A stretch of 64,000 nt of DNA from Candidatus Saccharimonadota bacterium (GTDB taxonomy: Bacteria; Patescibacteriota; Saccharimonadia; Saccharimonadales; Saccharimonadaceae), in NCBI GenBank assembly GCA_030529135.1, contig JAUMXO010000001.1, forward strand, positions 15,335-79,334. The letters run 5' to 3'. The notes under the pieces are model-generated. The model was not told the DNA's origin. It saw nothing but the letters and a program-made list of their open reading frames with translations, and made no database searches. This document shows positions 4,706 through 63,547 of the stretch, piece after piece. Numbering within the stretch: the first letter of the stretch is position 1; the number at the start of each line of letters is the position of its first letter. The position numbers and the translations under genes were made by a program.

Positions 4706-6976
4706 ATGTCTACAGCGAAACGAAGAAAAAATACAAAAAGAACTACCAAAAGTTCTAAAACTTCTCGCAAGACCAGCACCAGAAAAGCTGCCGAAAGGGA
4801 AGTGAACGCTGAGTACGAATTACCCGGTGGCTTTTGGCACCAACTGTTCGCAGTCTTTATGATTGCCCTGGCGCTTTTCTTCGTAATTACTTGGTTTGGT
4901 CACGGCGGTTCTTTCTTAAATACCGTTCACGAAACGCTTTTGAAGGGCCTCGGTCTCGCTACCTATTTTATTCCGATGCTCCTAGTTTACCTTGCAGTTA
5001 AAATTTTCCGTTCAGATACCAATCGTGTCGCTATCCCAGTTTATATTGCTGGAATTTTTATGCTATTTTGGCTTACGGGCGTCGGCGCGATTTGGAACAA
5101 CGGCGGCATCGTCGGCGATTGGCTAAATTCCATTATGCTAAAAGCCTTAGATCAAGGCTTTGTCATCGTCATTTACATACTTTTGATATTTATTACTCTT
5201 CTTTTTCTTTTGCAGCTTTCGCCACTCGCTTTCTTTAGAGGCGCTAAAAACATGGCTAAACCTGGCAAAAAAGCCACTCCAAAAGACGTTAATGAATCAG
5301 AGCCAAAGGGTCAACTAGAAATTAAAGTTAACTCCGGTATTTCTGAACCAGCTGCAGCTGCTGCACCAGTCAAAAGTGGCTTCTTGAAACGTAAATCTAA
5401 ATTTGTAGCCGAATCAAAACCAAAAGCTGCCGAATCAGAATCAGAAAAAACGCCTACCGCACTTGTAGCGGTCAATGACCCAGATTGGAAAATGCCATCC
5501 ACTGATCTTCTCACCAAAAAACAATCTCCGGCCGACGCTGGCAACATTCAACAAAATGCCATTATTATTAAAGATACTTTCTCAGAGTTTGGCATCGAAG
5601 TGGAAATGAAAGGCGCTAATGTTGGCCCACGCGTTACACAATATACTCTCAAAGCTCCAGGCGGTGTTAACCTCTCTAAGATTTCTGCACGCGATAAAGA
5701 GCTCGCCTATAAGCTATCCGCCAAGACCGTCCGGATTGAAGCTCCAATCCCAGGCACTCAGCTTATTGGCGTAGAAGTACCAAATATTCGTGCCGAAGGC
5801 GTCTCTCTTCGTGGTATCATCGAATCAGATGAATGGCGTCATGCCAAACATCCACTTACTTTCGCTGTAGGTAAGGATATTTCCGGTAAACCTGTCATAG
5901 CGGATCTTGCAGACATGCGTCACTTGCTTATTGCTGGTACTACCGGTTCTGGTAAATCTGTCATGACCAATACGCTTATTATGTCACTTCTTTACAGGAA
6001 TTCACCTTCTGATATGCGTCTTATCATCGTAGACCCAAAGCGCGTAGAAATGGCCGTTTACAAAGACATCCCTCACCTTCTTACGCCAATTATCAATGAC
6101 ACTTCCAAAGCTCTTTCGGCTATGAAATGGGCTGCTGGCGAAATGGATCGTCGCTATACTATCATGGAGGAGGCCGGCGTTAAAAACATCGTCGATTACA
6201 ACGAAGTCATGGAAGAAAAATCCAAATCCGCCTCCAAAGATTCCAAAGAAGAAGAAAACACTACCGAAAAAATGCCTTATATTGTGATAGTAATAGACGA
6301 AATGTCCGACCTTATGATGCAGGCCTCAAAAGAGCTTGAGCCTTTAATTGTTCGTATTGCTCAGCTTGGGCGCGCCGCTGGCATGCATTTAGTACTAGCT
6401 ACCCAGAAGCCAGTAGTAAAGGTCATTACAGGCCTTATTAAAGGCAATATTCCGTCTCGTATCGCTTTCCGAGTCCTAAGCTCAATGGATTCTCGCATCA
6501 TCCTCGATTCTTCTGGGGCTGAAAAGCTTCTAGGCCAAGGTGATATGTTATTGTCTTCTGAGCAAACTTCCAATGGCCCAGAACGCATCCAGGGCGCTTG
6601 GACTCCAGATGGCGACATTAAAAAAGTTACCGATTTCCTTCGCTCTCAGCGTCCACCTCAGTATAACGACGAAGTCATTGCCCAGCAAGTTGCCCTCAAA
6701 GGTGCTGGCGGCGGTCTTAGCGATATGGATGGCCTCGGTCGTAAATTCGACCCTCAAGATCCGCTAGTTCGAAAAGCCATTGAGATTTGTCTGAAAAATG
6801 GTAAATTCTCTACCTCGCTTCTTCAAACTTACCTCAGTAAATCCCATGGCTACGTATCTGGTCTTGGTGTCTGGCTCGAAGAGCTTGGTGTGATTGGCCC
6901 AGTCAACGGCACCAAACCTCGTGAGCTCCTCATCACCTCAATGGAAGAGTTTGACGAATTAGCTAGTTCTAGTTAG
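4706..6976 (+). CDS. ftsK: DNA translocase FtsK/SpoIIIE
   Basis: N-terminal TM helices, Walker A AGTTGSGKS, IVIDEMSDLM, GRAAGMHLVLATQKP, C-terminal gamma domain; start set at ATG 4706. Confidence 0.95.
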   Translation: MSTAKRRKNTKRTTKSSKTSRKTSTRKAAEREVNAEYELPGGFWHQLFAVFMIALALFFVITWFGHGGSFLNTVHETLLKGLGLATYFIPMLLVYLAVKIFRSDTNRVAIPVYIAGIFMLFWLTGVGAIWNNGGIVGDWLNSIMLKALDQGFVIVIYILLIFITLLFLLQLSPLAFFRGAKNMAKPGKKATPKDVNESEPKGQLEIKVNSGISEPAAAAAPVKSGFLKRKSKFVAESKPKAAESESEKTPTALVAVNDPDWKMPSTDLLTKKQSPADAGNIQQNAIIIKDTFSEFGIEVEMKGANVGPRVTQYTLKAPGGVNLSKISARDKELAYKLSAKTVRIEAPIPGTQLIGVEVPNIRAEGVSLRGIIESDEWRHAKHPLTFAVGKDISGKPVIADLADMRHLLIAGTTGSGKSVMTNTLIMSLLYRNSPSDMRLIIVDPKRVEMAVYKDIPHLLTPIINDTSKALSAMKWAAGEMDRRYTIMEEAGVKNIVDYNEVMEEKSKSASKDSKEEENTTEKMPYIVIVIDEMSDLMMQASKELEPLIVRIAQLGRAAGMHLVLATQKPVVKVITGLIKGNIPSRIAFRVLSSMDSRIILDSSGAEKLLGQGDMLLSSEQTSNGPERIQGAWTPDGDIKKVTDFLRSQRPPQYNDEVIAQQVALKGAGGGLSDMDGLGRKFDPQDPLVRKAIEICLKNGKFSTSLLQTYLSKSHGYVSGLGVWLEELGVIGPVNGTKPRELLITSMEEFDELASSS

Positions 6977-7094: not shown

Positions 7095-8087
7095 ATGAGT
7101 AATAAATTAGAAGTATACAAAATTGAAAAAGGCGAAATCGTCCTTGATATAGACGAAAAAAGTGAAACAATTTGGGCCACCCAAGCTCAAATTGCTCAAC
7201 TTTTTGATGTTAAACCTCAAAATATTACATATCATTTACGCAATATTTATAAAGAAAAAGAGCTTGACGAAAATCGAACTTGTAAAGAATCTTTACAAGT
7301 TCAAGAGGAGGGAGGAGTTTCGGTAAAGCGCAAAGTAAAAATGTACGATCTCGACGCCATCATCTCCGTTGGCTACCGTGTCAATTCCAAAAAAGCCACC
7401 GATTTCCGTATCTGGTCTACCTCTGTTCTTCATAATTATCTTGCCAAAGGCGTCGCTATTAACGAAAAGCGCCTCAAATCCGCCGACAGCAAAAGGTTAA
7501 AAGAAGTCGAAAACATGATGGGCGTTGTGAGACGCCTGATCGCCCACCAGGCTCTTGATGCTGGCGAAGCTAACGGCGTTTTAGAAGTAATTTCTAAATA
7601 TTCCACCAGCTTCCAGACTCTAAAAGAATACGATGATGGTTATATTGATCTTTCTGGCCTCAACAAAAAATCCAAAAAAGAAAAGAGGCTTACCCCAGAA
7701 TTTTGCATTGAGGTCATCGAAGGTCTCAAAAAATCCGTTAAAGGCGGTGATTTATTTGGCAAACCTAGAAACGACGCTTTCAAAGGCTCCATCGAAGGCG
7801 TCTATCAGAGTTATAATGGAGAAGACCTTTATCCTACTGTTGCCGAAAAGGCCGCTCATCTCTTGTATTTTGTCATCAAAGACCACCCCTTTTACGACGG
7901 CAATAAACGCATTGGCTCGTTGCTCTTCATCGTTTTTCTTACAATCAATGGCGAAAATCTTGCTAAAAACGGTGAGACCAAAATCAGCGACCGTGCTCTT
8001 ACCGCTCTAGCTCTGTTGATCGCCGAGTCGGAACCTACAGAAAAAGATCTCATTACCTCTCTCATCCGCAAGCTCTTAGAAGATTAA
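7095..8087 (+). CDS. RhuM-family protein fused to Fic/Doc domain
   Basis: TIWATQAQIAQLF...YDLDAIISVGYRVNS (RhuM); HPFYDGNKRIG (Fic/Doc). Confidence 0.88.
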   Translation: MSNKLEVYKIEKGEIVLDIDEKSETIWATQAQIAQLFDVKPQNITYHLRNIYKEKELDENRTCKESLQVQEEGGVSVKRKVKMYDLDAIISVGYRVNSKKATDFRIWSTSVLHNYLAKGVAINEKRLKSADSKRLKEVENMMGVVRRLIAHQALDAGEANGVLEVISKYSTSFQTLKEYDDGYIDLSGLNKKSKKEKRLTPEFCIEVIEGLKKSVKGGDLFGKPRNDAFKGSIEGVYQSYNGEDLYPTVAEKAAHLLYFVIKDHPFYDGNKRIGSLLFIVFLTINGENLAKNGETKISDRALTALALLIAESEPTEKDLITSLIRKLLED

Positions 8088-9548: not shown

Positions 9549-10508
9549 ATGTCTCGCCTTATCTTAGTTTATAACCCCAACTCTTCTAATTATTGTCGTG
9601 TCAAAAAAAATATTTTAGATCAAAAAACCAAATTGTTTGCTGAAAAAAATCTTACCGATTATACCATCAAAAAAATTGGTTTTGAAAATAACGTTAAAAA
9701 CCTTCAAAAAGAACTCAAAAACGGCGACATTTGTCTTTCTCTCGGTGGCGATGCCACCGCTGCTATTACTGCCAATGCCATCATGAGTTCCCAAAAAGAC
9801 GTCACTCTTGCTGTTCTCCCATATGGCAACTTCAATGACCTCGCTAGAACTTTGGGAACGATGAAGCTGGAGGATTTAAACGTTCACAAGCGGACCTCCG
9901 CGACCAACAGGGAGGGTACCGCGAGTAAACCGTTTAAGTCCGCTAGCCGTTTGTACCCTCTCGAGATTTATGTAGACGGCAAATTTTGGCGTTATGCTAC
10001 TTGTTACGTAACCATTGGTATGACCGCCGAAGCAGTTGAACTTTTTGATGAACCAAAATTTAGAAAATATATGCAAAAGGGCCACAAAAGTTCCTGGCGC
10101 TCTTATCTAGAGTTGGCCAAATGGTATTTCAAAAACCGTCGGAAGAAAGTGTTTCTTCCTGAGTTCACTATCAACAAAAATTCCACAGTCAAGAAAGCCT
10201 CTGATTATGCTGCTCTTAGTGGCAAATCCATGTGCCGTGTCATGAAGGGTGGCGACGATTGGAAAAAGCCCTATATTTTTAGGAGTGCTGCCCTAAAAAC
10301 TATCAGCTTCCCAAGACTATTTATCTTGATGGCAAAATCAATCTTGCATCGTACTCCCGGCAGCGATACGAAAGGCGATCTTCTAGAATTCAAGGAACCA
10401 GCTACCGTCGAACTTCAAGCCGAAGGCGAATATCAAACTTTTAAAAATATCAAAAAGATCAAGGTTAAGAAAGGGAATCAATGTTTGAAAGTGATAACAA
10501 AAAACTAG
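9549..10508 (+). CDS. diacylglycerol kinase family protein
   Basis: YNPNSS, LSLGGDAT, LPYGNFNDLARTLG, QAEGE motifs; carries short palindromic insert. Confidence 0.8.
   Translation: MSRLILVYNPNSSNYCRVKKNILDQKTKLFAEKNLTDYTIKKIGFENNVKNLQKELKNGDICLSLGGDATAAITANAIMSSQKDVTLAVLPYGNFNDLARTLGTMKLEDLNVHKRTSATNREGTASKPFKSASRLYPLEIYVDGKFWRYATCYVTIGMTAEAVELFDEPKFRKYMQKGHKSSWRSYLELAKWYFKNRRKKVFLPEFTINKNSTVKKASDYAALSGKSMCRVMKGGDDWKKPYIFRSAALKTISFPRLFILMAKSILHRTPGSDTKGDLLEFKEPATVELQAEGEYQTFKNIKKIKVKKGNQCLKVITKN
9872..9941 (+). repeat. short palindromic element in-frame in DAGK gene
   Basis: Imperfect arms GGATTTAAACG / CGTTTAAGTCC; inner CCTCC/GGAGG hairpin with GCGACCAACAG loop resembling GCGACRACGGGAG of other copies. 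Confidence 0.55.
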
Positions 10509-11284
10509 AACAGGTCATAACATACATGAAAACTCACTGGCCAAGTCCAGTAAAAGACGAGTGGCAAGTCAGTTTAGAAGAATACCCCAAAATTCTAAAA
10601 CAAATTGTCGCGGATTTTACTAAAGATAAGACTAAGAATAAAAATCTTATTCGCATTGCTGGTCTTTCTGGTTCCGGTAAAACTTCCCAAATTCTCCCCG
10701 CTGTAGAAAAATATTGCGAGATGAAAAATTTAAATCCAGTTCTCATCGCTGCTCGTCGTTTCGTAGATTATCATCCGTTCAGAAATGAAATTGAAATAGA
10801 ATACGGTGAAGAAAATTTACGTAAAAACACCGATGAATTTAGTACTATCATGATGTTTTTGAGTTTAAATGCTCTTACTAAAGCTGGTTATGATATTATT
10901 TTAGACGTTACATTACTAGATCCAGAGGTAGAAAATATCTTACTTGGAATGTTAAGAGAGAATAATTATCAAACTATGCTTCTAATGATCGCTACCAGCC
11001 CTACTGTTACTGAACATTTTTTGGGCGGTCGTGGTTGGCGTCATTCTAAGGCGACTGAAGCGGAATTTATTCGTGCCACTAGGGCAGCAATGGAATTCTA
11101 TGCCCAAAACTATCCAGATCTTCACACGATTCTTTGGAGCGTGTATGATCTAGATCCGATTTATAACGGAAAAATCAAGAACGCATTAGATATTTTTCAA
11201 GAATATTCAGAGAAAACCGATCTTCCTAAGTCAAACGATGACGAAAGAAGGGAAGCTAAAATTCAATTTCTTTCAAAACTTTAG
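10481..11284 (+). CDS. zeta-toxin-like P-loop kinase
   Basis: Walker A GLSGSGKT, FVDYHP, YDIILDVTL. Confidence 0.65.
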   Translation: MFESDNKKLEQVITYMKTHWPSPVKDEWQVSLEEYPKILKQIVADFTKDKTKNKNLIRIAGLSGSGKTSQILPAVEKYCEMKNLNPVLIAARRFVDYHPFRNEIEIEYGEENLRKNTDEFSTIMMFLSLNALTKAGYDIILDVTLLDPEVENILLGMLRENNYQTMLLMIATSPTVTEHFLGGRGWRHSKATEAEFIRATRAAMEFYAQNYPDLHTILWSVYDLDPIYNGKIKNALDIFQEYSEKTDLPKSNDDERREAKIQFLSKL

Positions 11285-13884: not shown

Positions 13885-14077
13885 GTCCAAACTATAATTT
13901 AACGCAACAGAAAACAGCAGAATATATCTGTTGTCTATAGTGCTTAGAATCGGGCGCTGTAGGCAATAGGCACTATGTTCTGTTGTATAAGTAGTTTGGA
14001 CGCTATCTACAGCGTCCGATTTTGGTTTTGTAGTATGCGTCCATTTTGCACCTTTCTGTTGCGAGAAAGCAACAGAA
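13885..14077 (+). promoter_or_regulatory. highly structured leader upstream of methyltransferase (candidate cis-regulatory RNA)
   Basis: Nested and mutually exclusive helices; 9-bp hairpin ending 1 nt before ATG 14079. Confidence 0.55.
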
Positions 14078-14078
14078 C

Positions 14079-15182
14079 ATGGGAAGCAATGCGAATTTGC
14101 ATAAAGCCAACAAAGCCAAAAAAGATGAGTTCTATACTCAACTCCCCGATATAGAAAACGAACTCAAACATTATAAGGAACATTTTAAGGGTAAAACTGT
14201 ATTTTGTAATTGTGACGATCCATATGAAAGCAATTTCTTTAAATATTTTGCAATGAATTTTAACCATCTAGGTTTGAAAAAATTAATTTGCACAAGCTAT
14301 TCTGGCTCTCCAATTGTTGGCCAAGAATTTAGCGATTTGCCACTGTTTAAAAGTCTAAATTCCAAAAAAGCCTACAAAGTAGAAATCACAGAAGTTTATG
14401 ACGAGAATAAAGACGGTGCAGTGGATATGTATGATATCGAGCTTCTAATTAAAAACATGAAAAACAAAATGACACTCCTAAAAGGTGACGGTGATTTTAG
14501 AAGCAAAGAAGCTATAGAATGTCTAAGGGAGGCCGATATTGTAGTAACTAACCCACCATTTTCACTATTTCGTGAATATCTTGCTCAACTCATAGAGTAT
14601 AAAAAACTCTTTCTTATAATTGGAAATATGAATGCAATAACCTACAAAGAGGTTTTTCCACTTATAAAAGATAATAAAATTTGGCTTGGCTATGGGTTTA
14701 AGGGAGGGAACGCATTTTTTTCTATTCCAGTTTATAGCAACGAGTATGCTAAAGGTGTGTACAATGAAGAAACAGGGCTAGTCAAATTTAGAAATTGCAC
14801 TTGGTACACTAACATTGACCATAATAAAAGACACGAAGAACTTATTTTGTATAAAAAATATTCCCCAGAAGAATACCCAAAATATGATAATTATGACGCT
14901 ATCAACGTAGATAAGGTTAATGAGATACCGGATGATTACAATGGTGTTATGGGGGTGCCAATCACCTTTCTCGACAAATACAATCCGGATCAATTTGAAA
15001 TAGTTGCCTTTAGGAAGGGCGAAGATGGCCGAGACTTAGTATTTACGAGAGAGAGAGAGGATTCAACCATACTTTCGTATCCTTGTACGACGTCGATTCC
15101 AGGGATGATAAAAAATGCAGAAGGGAAAATCAATGGAAAAATTACATACGCCAGAATAACCATCATGAAAAAGAGCCGATAG
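14079..15182 (+). CDS. adenine-specific DNA methyltransferase, EcoRI family
   Basis: KKDEFYTQL, FCNCDDP, GDGDFRS, VVTNPPFSLFREY, GVPITFLDKYNPDQFEI. Confidence 0.9.
   Translation: MGSNANLHKANKAKKDEFYTQLPDIENELKHYKEHFKGKTVFCNCDDPYESNFFKYFAMNFNHLGLKKLICTSYSGSPIVGQEFSDLPLFKSLNSKKAYKVEITEVYDENKDGAVDMYDIELLIKNMKNKMTLLKGDGDFRSKEAIECLREADIVVTNPPFSLFREYLAQLIEYKKLFLIIGNMNAITYKEVFPLIKDNKIWLGYGFKGGNAFFSIPVYSNEYAKGVYNEETGLVKFRNCTWYTNIDHNKRHEELILYKKYSPEEYPKYDNYDAINVDKVNEIPDDYNGVMGVPITFLDKYNPDQFEIVAFRKGEDGRDLVFTREREDSTILSYPCTTSIPGMIKNAEGKINGKITYARITIMKKSR
15047..15059 (+). repeat. (GA)6G simple sequence repeat in methyltransferase 3' end
   Basis: ACGAGAGAGAGAGAGG at 15045-15060. Confidence 0.9.
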
Positions 15183-15290
15183 ATTTTTTCTTCCCATATT
15201 CTACAAATTTAAAAAACGGTTTAGTGAATGATTGTAGAATAAACGGTAAAAAAACATACGTGAGGATATTAATTAAACGAAAGGAATCAA

Positions 15291-16382
15291 ATGAAAATTG
15301 AACTCAAAAACTTTAAAATTAAAGATATCTTCGAGGGCTATGAGGATAAAAACGAAGAAGGCATAACTGCATATAATGGCAAATTGGATATCCGCCCAAA
15401 ATATCAACGTGAGTTTGTCTATGATGACAAGAAGCGTAGCGCCGTTATTGATACTATCAAAAAAGACTTTCCACTCAATGTAATGTACTGGAATAAAAGA
15501 GATGACGGTGGCTACGAAATTCTAGATGGCCAGCAGCGCACTATCTCTTTCTGCCAATATCTAAATGGTGATTTTTCTTTTGAAGGCAAATATGCACATA
15601 ATCTCACGAAAGATGAATTAGAAAAAATCGAAAATTATGAATTGTTTATTTATATTTGCGAAGGCGAGGAAAGTGAACGTCTTGAGTGGTTTAGAACCAT
15701 TAATATTGCCGGCGAAAAGTTAACCGATCAAGAACTAAGAAATGCTACCTACACCAGCCCTTGGCTTACTGATGCTAAGAGATATTTTAGCAAATCTAAT
15801 TGTCCAGCTTACGGTCTTGCCGACAAATATATGAACGGTTCGCCAATCCGTCAAGACTATTTAGAAACCGTCCTAAGGTGGATTTCGGATGGCAAAATCG
15901 AAGAATACATGGCCGAGCATGCCAACGATAAAAAATACGACAATGCTTCCGAACTCTGGCAATATTTCCAAACCGCAATCGCTTGGGTGCAAACCATTTT
16001 CCCAGAGTATCGCAAAGAAATGAAAGGTTTAGAATGGGGCGAATTTTACAACAAATACCACAACAATTCCTACAACGCCACAGACCTAGAAAATAAAATC
16101 AAACAACTTATGCAAGATGAAGACGTCACTAGCAAAAAAGGAATTTACGAATACCTATTAAACGGCGACGAAAGAAATCTTAGCATCCGTGCCTTCACCG
16201 ACAACATGAAAAGAGAAGCATACGAGCGCCAAAACGGCATCTGTGCCAAGTGCGGCGAACGCTTTGAAATCACCGAAATGGAAGCCGATCATATCACTCC
16301 GTGGAGCCAAGGCGGAAAAACCATCACCGAAAACTGCCAGATGCTTTGCCGCGATTGCAATCGCAAGAAGTCCGACGTCTAA
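15291..16382 (+). CDS. DUF262 (GmrSD N-terminal-like) plus C-terminal HNH endonuclease
   Basis: RPKYQREFVY, LDGQQR, FRTIN; CAKC...EADHITPWSQGGKT...NCQMLCRDCN. Confidence 0.88.
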   Translation: MKIELKNFKIKDIFEGYEDKNEEGITAYNGKLDIRPKYQREFVYDDKKRSAVIDTIKKDFPLNVMYWNKRDDGGYEILDGQQRTISFCQYLNGDFSFEGKYAHNLTKDELEKIENYELFIYICEGEESERLEWFRTINIAGEKLTDQELRNATYTSPWLTDAKRYFSKSNCPAYGLADKYMNGSPIRQDYLETVLRWISDGKIEEYMAEHANDKKYDNASELWQYFQTAIAWVQTIFPEYRKEMKGLEWGEFYNKYHNNSYNATDLENKIKQLMQDEDVTSKKGIYEYLLNGDERNLSIRAFTDNMKREAYERQNGICAKCGERFEITEMEADHITPWSQGGKTITENCQMLCRDCNRKKSDV

Positions 16383-16424: not shown

Positions 16425-18860
16425 ATGAACCGGCTAGTTTTAATTGATGGAAAATCTGTCTTTTACCGTGGCTATTATGCCATGGGAGCCTTGAGCCTCC
16501 CAGATGGCACACCAACCGGTGGCATCTATGGCTTTGCCGCCATCGCTATGGAAATTGTTAAAAAGTTAAATCCTAGCAAAATTGTGGTGGCCTGGGATTC
16601 AAAAACTTCCACCGCTAAGAGAAAAGCCATCTACGAAGACTACAAAGCTGGCCGCGTCAAACCAGGCGAAGATTTTTACACTCAAATTCCTTTGCTAAAA
16701 AGACTAATCAACGATCTTGGCTGGTCCTTTATTGAACTAGACAATTACGAGGCCGACGACATTATAGGAACTCTCTCAAAGCAAGCCGACGAAGCGAAAA
16801 ATTACGAAACTTATATCATTTCTTCTGACCTCGATATGCTCCAAATTGTAGATGAAAATACTCATATGTGGCGCATTTTAAAAGGTTTTTCTAATATTGA
16901 AAAAATCGATGTCAAAGAAATTGAAGAGAAATATGGTATCAAAAAAAATCAATTCCTAGATTTAAAAGCCTTAAAGGGCGACTCTTCGGATAATATCCCT
17001 GGCGTCCCAGGCATTGGCGAAAAAACCGCAGCCAAGCTCCTAAACGATTATGGCACCCTAGAAAATATTTATCAGAATTTAGATAAAATCACCGGCTCGA
17101 CTAAAACCAAACTCGAAGCCGGCAAAGATTCTGCCATGATGTCCAAAAAGCTCGCCGAAATTATGTTCGACGCCCCAATCAACCTAACAACCATCCCAGA
17201 CTTCGAGTTCAACAAAGACAAGGTAATTAACGGCTTAAAGAAACTCCAATTCAACTCTCTCATCCGGAAAATTGGTGGGGGGCTTGGGAATAGTGTTTCC
17301 GAGACCGTCCGCGACAACGGGAGCGGAATGAGCGAGGAGCCCCGTGACGACGGGCGCGACGAAGCGCGTCGAGAAAACACTATCCCAAGCCCTGCGAGCG
17401 GCCCGTCCCGAGAGAGCGCCATTTCAAGCTCTAACGACACAATCTTGGATTGGGACATCAAGGGCTTAATGCACGAGAAAACAGAAATTGCCAAGAAAAT
17501 AGAATCCGGTGCAAAATACTGGGATCTTGGCCAAGCCGAATTTCTATTGAACCCTCTAGACCGCGGTCAATCGGACAAATATGACCCCATGGATTTCCGG
17601 ATGGCCTACCAAGTTCAGTACAGGGAACTAACCAAGATCCCTCGCCTATATAATATATATACCGAATTCGATCTTCCTCTCATACCAGTTCTCTACAAAA
17701 TGGAGATAAAGGGTATGCTGATAGATCGCGACTATTTTGCCAAACTTCGCACAGAATATGAAGAAGAGCTTCACACCCTTGAACAAAAAATTTACACTCT
17801 CTCGGGTATAACTTTTAATATCAACTCTCCAATCCAGTTGTCTGAAGTGTTGTTTATGCATCTAGGGCTCGCTACTAAGGGAATCAAAAAGACCACGCGC
17901 GGTTACTCAACCGGTGCAAAAGAATTAGACAAGCTAAAAAACGAGCATCCAATAATTAAAGAAATTATTAAATATCGCGAGACTAGCAAGCTTTTAAATA
18001 CTTATATTATTCCGATGCCAGACCTTGCAGATGACAATGACCGTATCCACACTACCTTTACGCAAAATGTGACTTCTACTGGTAGATTGAGTAGTAAAGA
18101 TCCTAATCTTCAAAATATCCCAGTTCGAACAGAAGAAGGAAAACGAATTCGTGCTGGTTTTGTTGCGCCAAAAGGCAAAAAACTAGTCTCTGCAGATTAT
18201 TCTCAGTTTGAGCTTCGTCTTGCCGCTATCATGTCGGGCGACCAGAGTCTCATCGATGATTTTAATAACAGTATTGATATTCACACTAAAACTGCTTCCG
18301 AAGCTTTCCACACCCCAATAAACCAGGTCACCAAGAATCAACGTCGCGCTGCTAAGGCTATCAATTTTGGCATTATTTATGGCATGAGCATTAATGGCCT
18401 AGCTGAAGCCACCAAAATGAATTTTTACGACGCCAAACGGTTCATGGATAACTACCAAAAACTTCGTGCGCCTATCATGGATTTTATGAAAAAAACTTTA
18501 GAAAAGGCTCGTACTGATGGCTACGTAGAAACTTATTTTGGGCGTCGTCGCCCTACTCCGGATGTCAAATCATCTAATTTTTTGATTAGAACCGCTGCTG
18601 AGCGCGCTGCGGGGAACATGCCAATTCAGGGAACAGAAGCCGATCTGATGAAACGTGCCATGATTAATATCGATAAAAAACTTCCAAAAAATGCCAACTT
18701 AATTATGCAGGTCCACGACTCTTTGATCGTGGAATGTGACGAAAAAGACACCGACGAAATTAGCCAAATTTTAAAACAAGAAATGGAGCAAGTAGCACCA
18801 GAGCTAAAAGTTAAATTGGCCGTAGATGTTACGATAGGCGACAATTGGGGTGAACTATAA
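16425..18860 (+). CDS. polA: DNA polymerase I (with in-frame palindromic insert in the linker)
   Basis: LIDGKS, YEADDIIG, GDSSDNIPGVPGIG, SADYSQFELR, AKAINFGIIYG, QVHDSL. Confidence 0.96.
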   Translation: MNRLVLIDGKSVFYRGYYAMGALSLPDGTPTGGIYGFAAIAMEIVKKLNPSKIVVAWDSKTSTAKRKAIYEDYKAGRVKPGEDFYTQIPLLKRLINDLGWSFIELDNYEADDIIGTLSKQADEAKNYETYIISSDLDMLQIVDENTHMWRILKGFSNIEKIDVKEIEEKYGIKKNQFLDLKALKGDSSDNIPGVPGIGEKTAAKLLNDYGTLENIYQNLDKITGSTKTKLEAGKDSAMMSKKLAEIMFDAPINLTTIPDFEFNKDKVINGLKKLQFNSLIRKIGGGLGNSVSETVRDNGSGMSEEPRDDGRDEARRENTIPSPASGPSRESAISSSNDTILDWDIKGLMHEKTEIAKKIESGAKYWDLGQAEFLLNPLDRGQSDKYDPMDFRMAYQVQYRELTKIPRLYNIYTEFDLPLIPVLYKMEIKGMLIDRDYFAKLRTEYEEELHTLEQKIYTLSGITFNINSPIQLSEVLFMHLGLATKGIKKTTRGYSTGAKELDKLKNEHPIIKEIIKYRETSKLLNTYIIPMPDLADDNDRIHTTFTQNVTSTGRLSSKDPNLQNIPVRTEEGKRIRAGFVAPKGKKLVSADYSQFELRLAAIMSGDQSLIDDFNNSIDIHTKTASEAFHTPINQVTKNQRRAAKAINFGIIYGMSINGLAEATKMNFYDAKRFMDNYQKLRAPIMDFMKKTLEKARTDGYVETYFGRRRPTPDVKSSNFLIRTAAERAAGNMPIQGTEADLMKRAMINIDKKLPKNANLIMQVHDSLIVECDEKDTDEISQILKQEMEQVAPELKVKLAVDVTIGDNWGEL
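17280..17392 (+). repeat. GC-rich palindromic element, in-frame in polA
   Basis: Arms 17280-17298 / 17375-17392 (18 bp plus bulged A); core motifs shared with ileS and 29376 copies. Confidence 0.85.
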
Positions 18861-29082: not shown

Positions 29083-29154
29083 ACCCACACCTTATATCTT
29101 AATCGCCGCACCCCCTTTACGCAAATTCAAATCTGTGCTATAATACTCTACAAT

Positions 29155-29373
29155 ATGGCTATAAAAGTAACTAGAAAAGATCAGGGTGAGGCAAACGAGA
29201 ATATTATTCGTCGTTTCAACCGTAAAGTCCTTCAGGGCGGTGTAATGCCACTCAAGAAGTCTCAGATGCGTTTTTCGAAGCCTATTTCCAAGCGCGAGCG
29301 AAGATTAAAGGCTATCATCAGGGAAGCACGCAAGACCGAAAAAACCGAGCGTATCAAATTAGGACTAAAATAA
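29155..29373 (+). CDS. rpsU: 30S ribosomal protein S21
   Basis: ENIIRRFNRKV...RFSKPISKRERR. Confidence 0.85.
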   Translation: MAIKVTRKDQGEANENIIRRFNRKVLQGGVMPLKKSQMRFSKPISKRERRLKAIIREARKTEKTERIKLGLK

Positions 29374-29375
29374 GA

Positions 29376-29522
29376 GATTCAGAGAAGGTGCTTTCGAGAC
29401 CCTCTTGCGACGACGGGAGCAAGAAGGGCGAAGCGCTCCCCGTAACGCTCGCCCCTTGGGACGCGAATTGCCGAAGGCAAACGGGCGAGCGCAAGCGCGT
29501 CGAGAAAGCACCTCTCTGAATC
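29376..29522 (+). repeat. GC-rich palindromic element between rpsU and adk
   Basis: Arms 29376-29395 / 29504-29522 (19 bp plus bulged A); several inner hairpins incl. TTGCC-GAA-GGCAA. Confidence 0.88.
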
Positions 29523-37062: not shown

Positions 37063-40000
37063 ATGAAATATAGAGCGGGAGAGCGCCGAAAGGCGATAGA
37101 GTATGAAAAGGCTCTCATCGATTGGTGGAAGAAAAATAAAACTTTTGAAAAATCTATCGAAGAGCGGCCAGAAGATAAATCTTATGTTTTTTATGATGGT
37201 CCACCATTCATTACTGGCATGCCTCATCATGGAACGCTTTTGAGTTCCATTGTTAAAGATGCCGTTCCGCGTTTTTGGACTATGCGTGGTTACAGAGTAG
37301 AGAGAAGATGGGGCTGGGATTGCCACGGCCTTCCTGCTGAAAATTTTGTTGAAAAACAACTTGGTATTACTGATAGAAGAGAAATCGGCACCAAGTGGTC
37401 GCTAGAAGACTACATTACCAAAGCTCGCGAATCCATGGTTGCTAATTCTGAAGAATGGCGTAGCACCATTGATCGTTGCGGTCGGTGGGTAGATTTTGAT
37501 AACCCCTATCGTACCATGAATAAAGATTTTATGGAATCTGTCTGGTGGGCTTTCAAGAAGCTATATGATGCTGGCAAGATTTACGAAGGTCGCAAGGTCC
37601 TAATGTATGACACCAAGTTTGCCACTCCTGTTTCAAAAGCCGAAGTCACTATGGATAACGACGCCTATCAAACCGTCACTGACCCAAGTGCGTACGTTAA
37701 GTTTAAACTTAGAAATTCGGAAGATACTCTTTCGAGGAGCATATTTGGCGACGAGCCAAATACGAAGCGATTGAGCCCCGTAACGATGGGCGCGAAGGAG
37801 CGTTCCGAGAAAGACGTATCTCCGGATTTCTACTTCTTAGCTTGGACTACCACCCCTTGGACTTTGATGGCCAATCGTGCTCTTGCAATCAGCAAAAAGA
37901 TGGAATATGGTGTTTATGACATAGACGGTCAGAAACTTATCGTTGCCACTAAGCGTGCTGAACAAATTTTTGGCTCAAACCCTCCCGAAAGAGTATTAAA
38001 GGGAAAAGAGCTAGAAGGTCTAGAATATGAATCGTTAGATGGTACCAAGTGTAAAGTTTTTGCCGCAGACTTTGTAGGTGAAGAAGAGGGTACCGGCATC
38101 GTTCATGTTGCCCCAGCTTACGGCGAAGATGATTACGAATTGTTCAGAGCTCACGAAAAAGAAATTGACTTCGTGGATACTTTAGACGAAAACGGTTATT
38201 ATATAAAAGAATACGCTGACAAACTTCACAAATTAGGCGTCCGCGACACCGATGAGCATGGCATCCAAATCTGGGCCGCCAACAAATTTATTGCCAAATG
38301 CCTAGAAGAAAAAGGAATTATCTATAAAATTGAATATATTCAGCATGAATACCCATTCAACCCTAGAAGCAAAGAACGTATTATGTATCGCGCTTTCCCG
38401 TCTTGGTTCTTTGATATCGAAGGCCAAAAGCCCTTAATGCTAGCCGAAAACGAAAATATCAACTGGTTTCCAGGATATCTCAAGCACGGTCGCTTTGCCA
38501 AAAATATCGAAGCCGCACCGGACTGGAATCTCTCTCGTGATCGTTTTTGGGCTACTGCCATGCCAGTTTGGAAGGGTGACAAAGGCTCGATCAAAGTTGT
38601 AGGCTCATATAAAGAGCTAGAAGAGTTATCAGGAAAGAGACTCGAAGATTATCATCGTCCATGGGTAGACGAAATTGAATTTGATATTAAAGGCGAACAT
38701 TTTACTCGTATTGAAAAAGTGCTCGACTGCTGGTTTGAATCTGGCTCCATGCCGTTTGCTCAGCTACATTATCCATTCGAGAATAAGGAAAAATTTGAAA
38801 AAAACTATCCTGCCGATTTTATCGTAGAATATGTCGGCCAGGTTCGCGCCTGGTTCTACTACGTACATGTAGTTAATACCGCTCTTGCCGACATCGGAGC
38901 CTTCGGTGACAAGGCTAAAAACGGTCACAAAAACGCGTACAAAAATGTGATCACTACCGGTACATTAGCCGGGAACGATGGCCGCAAGATGAGTAAATCC
39001 CTTGGTAACTATACCGATCCAAACGAACTTATGGATCAATATTCTGCCGACGCTTACAGATTTTTGCTCCTCATGAGCCCGGTCATGTCTGGCGAAGATT
39101 TTGCCATGTTGGATAAGGATGTTTCCGACATTAATCGTAAACTTGCAATGCTCTGGAACGTCTACGATTTCTTTACTACTTATGCCGAAATTGAAAATCT
39201 CGGCCCGGAGGATTTTGATAAACCTATCCGACTCAAATCTCCTCTAGACAATTGGATTACCCAGCGTTTTTACCAACTTCGTGATGAAATCACTACTGGT
39301 ATGGAAGAATACAACATACCAAAGGCGCTCCAAGGTGTTCTTCCGTTTATTGACGACTTGTCCAACTGGTATGTTCGTCGTTCTCGTCGTCGTTTTTCTA
39401 AAAACGATAATCAAGAAGATAAACTCGCCGCTTTTTACACGCTTTATTCCATGCTCAAGATGACCGCTATTATCCTCGCACCATTTACCCCGTTTCTCTC
39501 AGAAGAATTGTATCAAAAAATCACTATGAAAGAAGATTCGGTTCATCTATTAGCTTGGCCAGCCGCCATTGATGACGAGTCAATCCATGATACCATTCTA
39601 TCTGACATGACTCGTACCCGCCAGATTATTACAGATGCCTTAGCTCTTAGAATGCAAAAATCCGATACCGAGGATCAAATCAAGGTTCGCCAGCCACTTG
39701 CATCGCTAGTATATGACGGTGACAAGCTAGACAATTTTTATGAGCAGATTATTAAGGACGAAGTCAACGTTAAAGAAGTCAAAAATGGCAAAGAATTAAA
39801 ACTAGACAAGACCCTCACGAAAGAATTAAGGGAAGAAGGCTATGTTCGTGATCTCATTCGTGCGGTCCAATCTGCTAGAAAACATGCCGGTCTTCAAATG
39901 GACGACCATATTAAGCTTAGTCTTTCCGTCGAGATTCCAAAAGATTACATAGAGCTTGTGAAAACCGAAGTTTTAGCAGACACGATTGATGACGGCAACT

Positions 40001-41266: not shown

Positions 41267-43025
41267 AAATCCAGAACTATCAAGTGGCAATCCTGGTGAG
41301 TCAAAGGAAGCTAGCAACGAGGCTATTAATAAAGAACGTGGCAATAAAGTCAATAATATTGAAGCCCTGCTCAGAAGGCGCGAAGAATTACTAAAAAGAC
41401 GAGAATATCTAGAAGGAATTATTCGTCAGCTTGATAGCGAGGTAAAATCACCAGTATCCACGTCTGAACCAACTAAAGCCGAAGCTTCGGCATCCAATAT
41501 AACATCCGTTGCGGGCGAAGCCGAATCTACTGCCGCAAAAGATGAATCATCAGAAGAAGATAAAACTTCAAAGTCAGAAACTGCCCCAACGCCAAGTAAT
41601 CTCGGCGAAAAAATTAAGAAAAAATCTGGCCTTAGGAATTTAATTACCGGCATCGCCGCTGGTCTTGCTGTTACTATTTTTGCAGGCGGGTTTATGGCTA
41701 GTTACAACAAAAATGCCAAAGCCGCCGCACTTGCTGGCGGTGGAGCCGTACCAAAAGTTGAATCAGAAGTCGCTAATGAGAACTCGGTAGAAAATACTCA
41801 GTATGCCGGCGAAACTATTAATGGCGTTAAGTATGACTATACAGAATATGCTGACCGAAAAAATAAAGTTTCATATAACGCCTATGGTTATGACTATTCC
41901 GACCAATATGATAATAGGGAGGCTGCTACCAATGGTATTATGCGCATGGCCGGAGAAGAACCAGAAGCGCTCGCTTCCTATGCATATAATATATTTACCG
42001 ATACAGAGAAGGAAGAGCTGAATATTAAAGGCTTATCCATGGTAGAGATTGATGATAAATTTAATTCAGCTGGCGGCGGTGAGCTGCAGAAGAATCTTTT
42101 GGGTAAGCTAGATCAAGTTTTGAGGAGTGAAAAAACTAATTTTAGATTTTATCACGAAAATGGCACCGAAGAAACTAATTATGTTTATTTTGTAGATAGC
42201 AATAAAGACGGTAATTATACTCCAGACGAGCTGCATCTTGGTTACGACACTAAGAAACGCAGCAACGCTCCTCAGGTAGACATTTCTCGTACTATCGAGA
42301 ACTCAGATGGTACGACTAAGACACAAAAAATGCTTGATCTTAATATGAAGTGTGGCTATCAGCCAAATTATCAGAAGGCTCCAATAGGCGTGCCGCCGAT
42401 ACCTGCCGATAAACCAGTAGCTCAAGTTATCAAGGGGGGCGGTGCTGCCCAAATTATCAAAGGTGGCGGTCCAAATACTCCGACCCCGACGCCAAAACCA
42501 GAGCCAAAACCAAAGCCAAAACCAGATCCTAAGCCAGAGAAACATATACCGAAGAATGTTGAAGCTGAAAAACAAAATGCTGGCGATCGTGTTACCCCAT
42601 TGCCAATTGATAATAAAGTCACTCCGCCAACTACCGAAGCTGAAGATCGCAAAAACTTTGATGCTATAGCCGAACAACAACGACAACAGCAAGCCGCCGC
42701 CGAACAGGCTGCCCGTGTAGCAGCTGAACAAGCCGCCGCTGAGCAGGCCGCCGCTGCCGAAGCCGCTGCTAGAGCCAAAGCCGACGAAGAAGCTGCTCAG
42801 GCTCAAGCTGCCAACGAGGCCGCTGCTAGAGCTGCAGAAGAAGCCGCTCGCGCTCAGGAAGAAGCAAATCGACAAGAAGCAGAACAACGAGCTCAAGAAG
42901 AGGCAGCTCAGCAGGCTCAGGCAGAAGCCGATGCTCAAGCTGAGCAAAACAATCAGGAAGCTGAATCACATAATGATGATAACGCTAGCGAACGTGCTGC
43001 AGACTTCAATAGTGGAGATTTCTAA
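41259..43025 (+). CDS. single-pass membrane protein with Pro-Lys linker and Ala/Glu/Gln-rich helical tail
   Basis: GGAGG RBS; TM LITGIAAGLAVTIFAGGFMA; PKPEPKPKP; AAEQ repeats. Confidence 0.8.
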   Translation: MPKNPELSSGNPGESKEASNEAINKERGNKVNNIEALLRRREELLKRREYLEGIIRQLDSEVKSPVSTSEPTKAEASASNITSVAGEAESTAAKDESSEEDKTSKSETAPTPSNLGEKIKKKSGLRNLITGIAAGLAVTIFAGGFMASYNKNAKAAALAGGGAVPKVESEVANENSVENTQYAGETINGVKYDYTEYADRKNKVSYNAYGYDYSDQYDNREAATNGIMRMAGEEPEALASYAYNIFTDTEKEELNIKGLSMVEIDDKFNSAGGGELQKNLLGKLDQVLRSEKTNFRFYHENGTEETNYVYFVDSNKDGNYTPDELHLGYDTKKRSNAPQVDISRTIENSDGTTKTQKMLDLNMKCGYQPNYQKAPIGVPPIPADKPVAQVIKGGGAAQIIKGGGPNTPTPTPKPEPKPKPKPDPKPEKHIPKNVEAEKQNAGDRVTPLPIDNKVTPPTTEAEDRKNFDAIAEQQRQQQAAAEQAARVAAEQAAAEQAAAAEAAARAKADEEAAQAQAANEAAARAAEEAARAQEEANRQEAEQRAQEEAAQQAQAEADAQAEQNNQEAESHNDDNASERAADFNSGDF

Positions 43026-45998: not shown

Positions 45999-46559
45999 AT
46001 GTACGGACCTACAGATCTAAAGAAAAATACCCTCGTGACGATAGATGGCCAGCCGTATAAGGTGGTAGAATACTCGCAAAAAGTCATGGGTCGTGGCGGT
46101 TCTATCGTTAATGTCAAAGTAAAAAATCTCATCACCGGTGCGCTTTTGCCAAAGACTTTTAAGGGTCAAGAAAAAATTGAGCCAGCCGAAGTCACTACCA
46201 AAAAAGTACAATATTTGTATAATGATGGCGAAAAATTCTATTTTATGGATCCAGAATCTTTCGAACAGTATGAACTTCAAAAAGATATGGTCGGCGAGTC
46301 TAAAGATTTTATGAAAGAAGGTGACGAAATGGAAATCCAGTTTTACAATGGCACCCCAATTAATCTAGTGCTCCCGAAAAATCTTTGGCTCAAAGTTACC
46401 TATACCGAAACCGCAGTAAAGGGTGATACTACTAGCTCCGTAATGAAAGACGCTACCTTAGAAACTGGTGTGGTGGTCAAAGTGCCAGCTTTCATCAAAG
46501 AAGGTGATATTGTCTCAGTAGATACGGACACCTATGAATATCGCGAGCGTAAAAAATAG
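45999..46559 (+). CDS. efp: elongation factor P
   Basis: VMGRGGSIV, YFMDPESFEQ, ATLETG, VKVPAFIKEGD. Confidence 0.95.
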   Translation: MYGPTDLKKNTLVTIDGQPYKVVEYSQKVMGRGGSIVNVKVKNLITGALLPKTFKGQEKIEPAEVTTKKVQYLYNDGEKFYFMDPESFEQYELQKDMVGESKDFMKEGDEMEIQFYNGTPINLVLPKNLWLKVTYTETAVKGDTTSSVMKDATLETGVVVKVPAFIKEGDIVSVDTDTYEYRERKK

Positions 46560-47238
46560 AGGTTATTTCAAAATTGAGGGCGCTGTACGCGCCTTCAATT
46601 TTGATTTCAAAGACAAAGTAGTTTTAGACATTGGCTCTTCCACTGGCGGTTTTACTCAATATGCCCTAGATCACGGCGCCAAAAAAGTCTTCGCCGTAGA
46701 AAAGGGAACCAATCAAATGAAAGAACCCCTCCGTTCCAACCCACGCATCGAACTCCACGAAAAAACTGATATTTTTGATGTAGGAATACAAGATAGTTCT
46801 AACCGAGGGACTCCGGAGCGCGGCAGCGCGAGGATGAGCGCGCTGTCCCCGTGGCAGACCGCCCCTTGGGACGCGGACGACTCGAAGAGTCGACGGGCGA
46901 CGGCGACGCGGCCCGATGTAGAACTATCTTGTATTCCAGACATAATTCTAGCAGACGTTTCCTTCATTTCTCTCACCAAGCTTTTAAAATACGCCAAAGA
47001 AAATCTATCTAATAAAAACACAGATTTTTTAGTTATGTTAAAACCTCAATTTGAGGCAGAAGAAAAAGACTTACATAATGGTATCGTCAAAAACGAAACC
47101 ATCAGAAGGGATATTATTAAAAAATTTGAAAATTGGCTCAAAAACAACAATTTCGTGGTTTTAAAGAAGAAAGACAATATTATGCATGGCAAGCATGGTA
47201 ACACAGAAAGATTCTACTGGTTGAAACAATCAAAATAG
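46534..47238 (+). CDS. tlyA: TlyA-family rRNA methyltransferase (no S4 domain) with in-frame palindromic insert
   Basis: VLDIGSSTGGFT, DVSFISL, LKPQFE, GNTE. Confidence 0.85.
   Translation: MNIASVKNRGYFKIEGAVRAFNFDFKDKVVLDIGSSTGGFTQYALDHGAKKVFAVEKGTNQMKEPLRSNPRIELHEKTDIFDVGIQDSSNRGTPERGSARMSALSPWQTAPWDADDSKSRRATATRPDVELSCIPDIILADVSFISLTKLLKYAKENLSNKNTDFLVMLKPQFEAEEKDLHNGIVKNETIRRDIIKKFENWLKNNNFVVLKKKDNIMHGKHGNTERFYWLKQSK
46783..46937 (+). repeat. GC-rich palindromic element, in-frame in tlyA
   Basis: Perfect 19-bp arms 46783-46801 / 46919-46937; 16-nt identity with 29376 copy; GACTC-GAA-GAGTC hairpin. Confidence 0.9.
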
Positions 47239-58078: not shown

Positions 58079-59017
58079 CTATTTTGTCTCCGAATGGAAC
58101 TTTTCGTGTATTTCTTTGAGATGTGCGTCGGTCACGTGAGTATAAATTTGCGTTGTAGAAATATCTGCATGTCCTAGCATTGATTGTACCGAACGGATAT
58201 CTGCTCCGTTCATCAAAAGGTCCGTCGCAAAAGAATGTCTCAAGGTATGTGGGGAAACGTGTTTGGTGATTCCAGCTAGTCTAGCGTATTTTTCGACAAT
58301 TCTTTCTACGCTTCGTGCGGTAATTCGTCGGTAATTTCCAGAAGTATCTACCGCCTGTAAATTTCGTGAATTATTCAGAAACAACGCTGGCAGGGAATCA
58401 GTCCTAGCATCTAAATAATCTGCCACTCTATCTGCGCAAGTCTCTGAGATAAAAATCGGACGGTCTTTGGAACCTTTGCCTCTCACCATAAATTCACGCC
58501 TCTCTAAGTTAATAGAATCTCGGTTTAACCCTACCAACTCCGAAACGCGTAGCCCTCCAGAATAAAGTAGCTCAATAATCGCTCTATCTCTTAGTCCCGA
58601 TTCTGTGGAGAGATCAATCTGTTCCAACATATCTTCCACTTCATCAAAATGCAAAAACGTCACTTGCTTTCTCACCACATGTGGCAAATCTATCAGGGAA
58701 GGATCAAGTGACTTAATCTCTCGCCGGGCTAAATACTTAAAAAAGCCTCTCAGCGCTATTAAATGATAAGCCTGCGTGATAGTTTTTAAATCATCGCCGC
58801 CATTTTCTGAGCCATAACGGTTGAGTTTTAGGCGATATTTTCTCAGCACTTCGCGATCTATATCTGAAGCTTTAATATCGTCTTTATTTAAGATTTCCGT
58901 TGCAATTTCTAGAAATCTTTCCAGGTACAAACGATAATTTTCGGTAGTTTTTTTACTCCTACCGGATTCAATCTCGAGATGCTCTAAAAAATCTTCAATT
59001 AGATCGCTTATATACAT
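58079..59017 (-). CDS. tyrosine recombinase XerC/XerD family
   Basis: RDRAIIELLYSGGLRVSEL, GKGSK, HTLRHSFAT, LGHADISTTQIYTHV. Confidence 0.93.
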   Translation of the reverse strand: MYISDLIEDFLEHLEIESGRSKKTTENYRLYLERFLEIATEILNKDDIKASDIDREVLRKYRLKLNRYGSENGGDDLKTITQAYHLIALRGFFKYLARREIKSLDPSLIDLPHVVRKQVTFLHFDEVEDMLEQIDLSTESGLRDRAIIELLYSGGLRVSELVGLNRDSINLERREFMVRGKGSKDRPIFISETCADRVADYLDARTDSLPALFLNNSRNLQAVDTSGNYRRITARSVERIVEKYARLAGITKHVSPHTLRHSFATDLLMNGADIRSVQSMLGHADISTTQIYTHVTDAHLKEIHEKFHSETK

Positions 59018-59106
59018 AACTAAATTATATATCAAAAACAATTAGAAATCGCACTTTTTGCTATTTTTAACCGCCTTTTCTGGCAGAATCCTTTCTTAAT
59101 GGAACG

Positions 59107-63450: not shown

Positions 63451-63547
63451 GTGGTAAGAAATTCTAAACGGGCCCTACGGACCTTAAAGACTTGGCCTGA
63501 GCGGCCCGGAGCGTGTCCGAAGGACACGCTTTAGAATTTCTTACCAC
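63451..63547 (+). repeat. palindromic element between rplU and parA
   Basis: Perfect 18-bp arms 63451-63468 / 63530-63547; CGGGCC/GGCCCG helix and AGCGTGTCC-GAA-GGACACGCT hairpin. Confidence 0.85.

Follow-up and report, generated by a model that had tools for sequence, protein, structure and literature searches.

A GC-rich structured repeat in tlyA and other loci of ruminant-gut Saccharibacteria, with locus-specific arms and, at tlyA, an inverted copy of the host flank

The tlyA gene (46534-47238, plus strand) in a 64,000-nucleotide stretch of a Candidatus Saccharimonadota genome (contig JAUMXO010000001.1, positions 15,335 to 79,334; hereafter the window) carries a 138-bp in-frame insert that consists of an inverted copy of the host sequence lying directly downstream, followed by a conserved, GC-rich core. 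We propose that this insert is one copy of a small, non-autonomous, structured mobile repeat of ruminant-gut Candidatus Nanosyncoccus (Saccharibacteria), and that its upstream arm originated by self-primed snap-back synthesis, or template switching, at the site itself; taken jointly, we hold these two propositions to be somewhat more probable than their negation. The family is previously undescribed, and no description of Saccharibacteria elements of this type, or of repeats with host-derived arms, was found in the literature searched, the coverage of which was incomplete.

Results

The tlyA product belongs to the FtsJ-type rRNA methyltransferases (its homologues carry PF01728 and some are named TlyA), and the 234-amino-acid reading frame is open throughout the insert. 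The heptamer GATGTAG occurs at 46777-46783, where it is host sequence and provides codons for D-V, and again at 46915-46921, where GATG overlaps the conserved 3' end of the element and TAG begins the right arm. The 19-mer GGAATACAAGATAGTTCTA occurs once per strand in the window with zero mismatches, at 46783-46801 on the plus strand (the left arm, encoding GIQDSS) and at 46919-46937 on the minus strand; read on the plus strand, the latter is the right arm and supplies the codons V-E-L-S-C-I-P. The complete layout of 46777-46937 is GATGTAG-GAATACAAGATAGTTCTA-[117 nt]-(CC)GATG-TAGAACTATCTTGTATTCC, in which the structured long-form core occupies 46802-46918 and the sequence between the arms has a G+C content of 68-77% (41.5% over the whole window). 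An inverted pair of this kind was not expected even once in 100 shuffles and is far beyond chance; the heptamer by itself is unremarkable, because the window holds 12 copies against 5.7 expected. These positions and the 19-bp arms agree in every coordinate with a preliminary description of the site that had been made from the sequence alone. The window TlyA is of a short form comprising the FtsJ methyltransferase domain only, with ~188 amino acids when the insert is discounted, and the start of its gene overlaps the end of efp by 26 nt.

Empty counterparts of this site establish which parts of the structure are host and which are insert. A TlyA protein search returned homologues with a bimodal length distribution (~186-198 and ~215-260 amino acids), among which the protein P0002 (188 amino acids, 97% identical) reads ...KTDIFDVELSCIPDIILADVSFISL. 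This is exactly the normal-length product that the preliminary description had predicted from deletion of the 138 bp between the two heptamers. The contig that encodes P0002, L001, is syntenic with the window at ~95% identity over 20 kb, and the DNA of its empty site is GATGTAGAACTATCTTGTATTCC (in a longer reading, ...GATATTTTTGATGTAGAACTATCTTGTATTCCAGAC), with GATGTAG in single copy. A sheep-gut contig from run X3 provides an independent empty allele, in which the sequence jumps from 46776 to 46915, a distance of 138 bp, and seven junction letters fit either side. Both empty alleles keep the right arm in 19 of 19 positions, and in both the left arm and core are missing; because they retain the former and lack the latter, the inserted material is the core plus a left arm that repeats the host flank in inverted orientation. 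The two alleles thus read as had been anticipated, and neither lacks the right arm, as both should if the two arms belonged to the element. The left arm is therefore a 19/19 reverse complement of adjacent sequence that pre-exists in empty alleles, which is what a snap-back product should look like. The filled state was also recovered from an independent sample (L083), with flanks and arms identical to those of the window. Because xCxP is found in insert-free TlyA homologues opposite the SCIP encoded by the right arm, alignment identifies this arm as true tlyA coding sequence rather than an excision footprint, and its native status holds whether the empty allele is ancestral or was produced by secondary loss.

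For the filled/empty tlyA pair the 7-bp direct repeat is genuine, because a seven-letter junction overlap has a chance of only ~4^-7. Its value as a clue to mechanism, for which the preliminary description had proposed it, does not appear to extend to the family: only one filled/empty pair is at hand, the orthologous copy in L164 has only TAG in common with its left flank, and a matching direct repeat was not found at the polA, ileS, rpsU/adk or L164 copies, in line with what had previously been reported for polA and ileS. The right-hand GATG sits where other copies have a conserved 3' CCGAG (here CCGATG); at the corresponding position L164 has CCGAGA and L002/L004 have CCGAGAAAG. Because GATGTAG overlaps the conserved 3' end of the element, comparison of the copies suggests that it need not be a classical target-site duplication. 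It may have originated as a target duplication or as microhomology, or it may be the substrate of precise excision.

The element proper is a conserved core of ~70-120 nt. Its fold is a three-way junction that carries an outer stem, a tandem G.A motif (CGAG/CGAG), a P2 helix (GGGGC/GUCCC), a P3 hairpin and a P4 helix (GCGAGGAGCCCCGU-GAAG-ACGGGCGCGACGAGC) with further tandem G.A pairs inside, and a short terminal stem closes it. An iterative nhmmer search seeded with four window cores recovered 5 copies only and was too insensitive, so covariance models were built instead, from five copies aligned by hand-checked structure; scans for GC islands and for hairpins with exact seeds recovered only 14-15 clean copies. 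The models detected 20 copies in 1.46 Mb around tlyA from 80 Nanosyncoccus/Saccharibacteria genomes; a further 1.2 Mb, made up of metagenome loci that are more distant, added 3. The tlyA core was matched at 46797-46923 with E=3e-4 (1.3e-5 with filters off); its 5' 39 nt are nearly the same as those of the L164 copy, with one difference, and its P4 helix holds an extra module of ~33 nt at roughly 46859-46892. In an alignment of 17 sequences, 95.5% of cells paired, versus 39-54% with slid partners, and compensatory changes were present at 22 of 25 pairs, counts that lean toward the model since this alignment had been fitted to it; the hand alignment already contained G-C/C-G, C-G/U-A and GA-to-Watson-Crick exchanges. 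At one P2 position G.U is the commonest state (7/17). A scan of the window with the Rfam covariance models gave nothing at gathering score except two tRNAs, and the tlyA, L010 and short-form copies gave nothing with E < 0.4, such that neither form matches an Rfam family. The core pattern was missing from the viral contigs searched, which gave no sign of carriage by phage. In gut and manure metagenomes where this strain occurs, core depth is 100-200x the depth of single-copy flanks, so the family is present there in great abundance.

Outside of the core, conservation ends almost at once. Across 25 copies the outer arms have in common only ~5 nt beside the core (CTTYC / GRAAG); beyond this the sequences differ locus by locus without conserved terminal inverted repeats, with lengths of ~10 to 39 bp and a state that ranges from perfect to decayed. 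The arms of the L164 tlyA copy, GGTCTGCAAGATAGTTCTA and TAGAACTATCTTGCAGACC, each have three substitutions relative to the window that mirror one another, such that they are still 19/19 complementary, and the L164 right arm encodes S-C-R-P where the window encodes S-C-I-P. This comparison covers 3 positions in two perfect copies, whose mirrored changes may or may not stem from a single step. At ileS, where a long-form copy lies in frame at 37711-37831 (plus strand), insert-free orthologues of site A read AYVKFK..DFYLLAWTTTPWT, and the native P-D-F is supplied by the right arm of the window copy (PDF-Y). At ileS site B the L005 protein reads KDAFPTNL-LDQWI vs KDASSTNP-LDLWI, with TNS-LDIWI in L092. 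In tlyA genes of other species that hold either the long or the short form, the downstream arm encodes ELFCAP (L002/L004), SVIL (L003/L007) or LFIAP (L005). According to protein alignments, the residues specified by the downstream arm at ileS sites A and B, and at the tlyA of these other species, are ones that insert-free orthologues conserve, and the idea in the preliminary description of an arm that becomes complementary to its target fits these sites as well.

Several comparisons between strains and species suggest that the cores are mobile. Cores are 93-99% identical across species and loci (93% for window polA vs L092 ileS, 99% for L005 vs L003), and the TlyA proteins of those genomes are 66-80% identical. 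L164, with TlyA ~75% identical to that of the window, agrees with it in tlyA at 60% of third-codon positions upstream of the insert, at 37% of those downstream, and at 90% within the aligned core. Overall, core identity is 90-99% between species that are near saturation at tlyA third-codon positions. In ileS, comparison of window 37650-37840 with L001 1181-1325 shows flanks at 99-100% identity and two 100-bp bins over the element at 79% and 51%, so that the divergent patch between these 95%-identical strains is limited to ~170 bp around the element. L001 has at this position a short form with different arms, versus the long form of the window, and the flanking codons differ synonymously. This looks like replacement of the allele by homologous recombination with the flanks co-converted. 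A type IV pilus/competence-like cluster is also encoded in the window.

The polA gene has a long-form copy in frame in its linker (17280-17392, plus strand; covariance model score 75.7 bits; arms GGGCTTGGGAATAGTGTTTC / GAAAACACTATCCCAAGCCC). No relative at 99%, 98% or 88% identity lacks an insert, and in a pattern shared with ileS the 88% one has another element type in the same linker; insert-free PolA proteins have a different, AT-rich linker that leaves no clean junction. Directly after the polA right arm, at 17393-17420, there is a GC-rich stretch (TGCGAGCGGCCCGTCCCGAGAGAGCGCC, peptide ASGPSRESA) that P0126, a relative at 82% identity, does not have. Pieces resembling it ('..DAARES/PSRES..') turn up in other PolA linkers, and the stretch appears to be left over from a second, tandem insertion. 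For the copy between the rpsU stop codon and adk (29376-29522, plus strand), an empty site was not found in four metagenomes, which returned filled contigs only. A contig search of metagenomes based on IleS had a best match of 78% identity and gave 3 further copies, with no new filled/empty pair.

No transposase, reverse transcriptase or HUH gene was found in the 64-kb window, and GC skew gave no usable direction of replication. Genes of defence or mobile type lie at 7095-8087, 10481-11284, 14046-16382 and 58079-59041 (a Fic/RhuM protein, a zeta-toxin-like kinase, an EcoRI-type adenine methyltransferase beside a GmrSD/HNH endonuclease, and an Xer-like tyrosine recombinase), none obviously tied to the repeat.

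Where the element lies within genes it is in frame and free of stop codons throughout, as seen in tlyA, polA, ileS (three sites), tsaD and a DAGK gene; copies also lie between genes. An AlphaFold2 model of the 234-amino-acid TlyA has predicted local distance difference test (pLDDT) values of ~85-97 except at residues 88-124, the insert, where they are < 50, and the loop at this position varies from 23 to 71 amino acids among homologues. On the basis of the model, the TlyA insert is best read as a translated, tolerated, disordered loop. The coding copies are in sense orientation 11 times and antisense twice, a bias that is only suggestive because several copies share a site and the counts are not independent. 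Avoidance of stop codons was ruled out as its cause, given that the sense strand has 1-2 open frames and the antisense strand has more.

Discussion

Our analysis places at tlyA a hairpin in which one half of the outer stem belongs to the gene and the other half is its inverted copy, and we infer the snap-back step that would link the two. In the model that we favor, host DNA at each locus provides the material for the long outer stem, with a native downstream arm and an upstream arm that is its inverted copy. The core would enter the site first. Having just copied the core, a nascent strand would then fold back on the core's own closing stem, and in extending it the polymerase would read from flank that had itself just been synthesised, an event of snap-back or intramolecular template switching. 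A short stretch of microhomology, of 1-2 nt at tlyA and possibly 6-7 nt at ileS site B, would let the strand rejoin the parental template. Repetition of this process, or conversion between the arms, could renew perfect complementarity after the host arm mutates. Within genes, the survivors would be in-frame, stop-free insertions in tolerant loops, translated as disordered loops; movement from strain to strain would proceed by homologous recombination that co-converts the flanks, and precise loss could occur by slippage between short direct repeats that the hairpin brings together, giving the empty tlyA allele. Template switching is known to create and maintain perfect hairpins with several compensatory changes per step (PMC8794818, PMC5453318, PMC10710096). 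Of the mechanisms offered in the preliminary description, fold-back or template switching fits these observations; guide-like pairing is without support, given that the arm matches only its own neighbour.

A broader proposal may be built on this model, in which the repeats represent a new class of mobile element without fixed ends. The structured core, as single-stranded DNA or RNA, would enter a site and there generate a terminal inverted repeat out of target sequence, priming the synthesis itself; the long and short cores would follow the same route, and loops of essential proteins in this reduced-genome episymbiont would be continuously rewritten. Recognition or catalysis, in a mechanism so far undescribed, would be the task of the three-way junction with its tandem G.A pairs. 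We put this forward tentatively, as an idea with an appreciable chance of being right and a considerably larger chance of being wrong.

A number of observations weigh against the snap-back account. The type of insert at the tlyA site is also present in relatives whose TlyA is 65-78% identical, yet the 97%-identical strain is without it, and because of this distribution the empty allele is probably a secondary precise loss rather than the pre-insertion state. The filled/empty comparison at the level of DNA is available at tlyA only, and for the other sites the evidence consists of protein alignments across loops that evolve fast. The polA insert appears to replace a native AT-rich linker and not just to add to it, and in TsaD (L042) neither arm is clearly native. 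At the tlyA site, L003 (1011-1123) and L007 (10251-10361) have homologous arms with the core in opposite orientation, so that either an extra inversion step is needed or core orientation is not tied to the native arm; the alignments suggest inversion between the homologous arms as the simplest reading, and independent tlyA insertions in both orientations seem less likely. The model leaves the first entry of the core into a site unexplained. It also makes no use of the conservation of the core or of the frequent G.U pair in P2, which suggest an RNA function or recognition by a protein.

These points lead to the alternatives. The element might instead be moved by a dedicated enzyme encoded elsewhere, such as a HUH/Y1 transposase, a recombinase acting on a folded strand, or a reverse transcriptase, with the inverted copy as a by-product of flanking hairpin formation or of target-primed synthesis with strand jumping, or with the arm as a programmable guide. 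A core with a highly conserved and specific fold is what recognition by a protein would lead one to expect, the source metagenomes contain the family in great abundance (core depth 100-200x that of the flanks), the 7-bp duplication at the filled/empty junction resembles a target-site duplication, and the presence of locus-specific arms on unrelated long- and short-form cores fits a shared machinery. We nevertheless regard this as unlikely: the window holds no candidate beyond the Xer-like recombinase and the HNH/GmrSD restriction-type gene, the direct repeat is not consistent at other copies, and the core pattern is missing from viral contigs, while a guide would have to be rewritten for each locus, with each left arm matching its own neighbour and having no second occurrence in the window. 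Somewhat less probable again is that the insert is a functional mRNA stem, involved in stability, processing or regulation, whose arms became complementary by gradual, selected compensatory substitutions. The helices do covary, the G.U pair that is commonest in P2 (7/17) works only on the modelled strand, plus-strand folds are more stable than minus-strand folds at ileS and L001, arm mismatches are G.T in 28 cases vs A.C in 16, and coding copies are predominantly sense (11 vs 2) though the antisense strand has fewer stops, a count that loses weight with several copies at one site. Stepwise selection, however, cannot yield perfect complements, 19-25 bp in length, to whatever host coding sequence each new locus presents; judging by the empty allele, the left arm came in along with the core, and the window and L164 arms are both perfect despite three differences, with no G.U intermediates.

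Two further explanations would make the insert invisible or unreal. The heptamer places identical D-V codons at both borders and a strong stem-loop starts right after the first of them, so splicing, or ribosomal bypassing from a GAT-GTA take-off to identical landing codons, could remove the insert from expression and give native TlyA, exactly the protein of the empty allele. If they were skipped, genic copies would have no need to preserve the frame and avoid stops, as all of them do; other copies lack matching border codons, no intron or ribozyme family was matched, and no stop codon follows the take-off site; we therefore consider such removal very improbable. Inverted duplications can also arise in multiple-displacement amplification and in mis-assembly, and a fold-back chimera would have the appearance of the tlyA insert. 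The same insert with identical arms in the independent sample L083, related inserts in dozens of TlyA, PolA and IleS genes assembled independently in different studies, and reading frames that are always kept render an artefact scarcely credible.

The repeat resembles several known systems in part. Rickettsia palindromic elements are hairpin repeats of ~100-150 bp that lie in frame in housekeeping genes, in surface loops, and like them the present element is short, hairpin-forming, scattered in a small genome and in frame, with the protein fold kept. Copies of the Rickettsia elements can be aligned over their full length, ends included, whereas here the core alone is conserved, the outer stem is locus-specific and comes from the host, the phylum is another, and a GC-rich core sits in an AT-rich genome. 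MITEs (miniature inverted-repeat transposable elements) and similar repeats (Correia/NEMIS, ERIC, RUP, BOX) are likewise small, non-autonomous and multi-copy, with inverted ends, presence or absence between strains and sometimes a target duplication. The terminal inverted repeats of MITEs are transposase binding sites and are the same in all copies, a defining feature that the 25 copies here do not have, and the window has no parent insertion sequence or transposase. Fungal mitochondrial GC clusters, double-hairpin elements and byp elements are also GC-rich hairpin repeats of AT-rich, compact genomes that enter coding regions; they differ in being organelle-borne, with byp bypassed by the ribosome rather than translated, and to our knowledge no host-derived arms have been reported for any of them. 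We know of no described small bacterial repeat that pairs a host arm with its inverted copy.

For the loss of the insert, Tn10 and Tn5 offer a parallel. Their precise excision occurs by slippage between the copies of the target duplication and is stimulated by inverted repeats, and at tlyA a short direct repeat flanking a long inverted repeat would similarly allow the target to be restored exactly; by this analogy Tn10-like slippage is a plausible origin of the empty tlyA allele, though the parallel concerns loss only. Integron attC sites are recombination sites that a single-strand fold, and not sequence, defines, and as in this element their stems differ from copy to copy. Variation in attC extends over the entire site, which IntI recognises, whereas here a conserved core caps a variable stem without an integrase-cassette context, and the sole tyrosine recombinase in the window looks like Xer. 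A match to the target carried by the donor, as in guide-directed elements (the exon- and intron-binding sites, EBS/IBS, of group II introns, the IS200/IS605 guide, or the bridge RNA of IS110), was not found. A process with the same signature is template-switch mutation or quasi-palindrome correction, in which an inverted copy is written beside adjacent sequence in one replication event that creates or perfects a hairpin, as matches the left arm and the window/L164 comparison (PMC8794818, PMC5453318, PMC10710096). Known events of this kind are sporadic and occur in arbitrary places, and here they would be recurrent beside a conserved mobile core that acts as the nucleating hairpin.

Conserved ends are the usual means of recognising small bacterial repeats, and an element with ends copied from each target would escape standard MITE and insertion-sequence finders. 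Such ends point to a different way of inserting or stabilising DNA, and would provide a natural, recurrent system for the study of template switching, which is otherwise seen only as rare scars. The essential genes polA, ileS, tlyA and tsaD of ultra-small Saccharibacteria carry translated selfish insertions that are gained and lost between strains 95-97% identical, and this affects gene calling, protein-length quality checks, strain typing and phylogenetics in genomes of the candidate phyla radiation. The conserved core is itself a candidate for a new structured nucleic-acid motif.

Additional copies and sequence features

Besides the long form there is a second, shorter family with the core ..(C)ATAAGACTTGGCC-NNNN-GGCCCGGAGCG.. 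and long locus-specific arms, up to 39 bp in L012; the tlyA and ileS loops occupied by the long form are sites for this family too. Within the window it is represented downstream of rplU (63451-63547, plus strand) by a short-form relative with core ..AAAGACTTGGCCTGAGCGGCCCGGAGCG.. and 18-bp perfect, locus-specific arms; other short-form sites are at L001 1204-1290, L005 10226-10369, L012 10252-10363, L014 ~6140-6250, L015, L020 9928-9994 and L051 ~14830-14940. A partial or degenerate hairpin-forming copy with core CAAGCGGACCTCCGCGACCAACAGGGAGGGTACCGCGAG lies in frame in the DAGK-family gene (9872-9941, plus strand), and the covariance model did not detect it.

Some copies hold a 33-nt two-hairpin module in the P4 loop. 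In the long-form rpsU/adk copy this module occupies 29448-29480, and a contig from X1 skips from 29447 to 29481, such that the module is precisely missing. The second hairpin of the module shows a fully compensatory exchange between the window and L083 2553-2676, where the flanks are identical (GACTCGAAGAGTC vs TTGCCGAAGGCAA). Two further stretches were tried as repeats and ruled out: the high-depth region 29150-29235 is the conserved rpsU gene, and the GC-rich island 42680-42805 is a low-complexity coding repeat rich in Ala, Glu and Gln within a 590-amino-acid open reading frame.

Around the tlyA element, the codons for EKTDIFD and ADVSFIS (46759-46971 in the window, 987-1145 in L003) show a weak additional inverted symmetry of ~60% over ~25 nt, which could reflect chance, a pre-existing quasi-palindrome that favored the site, or outward creep of the arms. 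The TlyA homologues P0010, P0014, P0033, P0049 and P0074 have an extra, element-like insertion of 30-40 residues near the N-terminus (e.g., ..GISERGSARVSAVRPW..).

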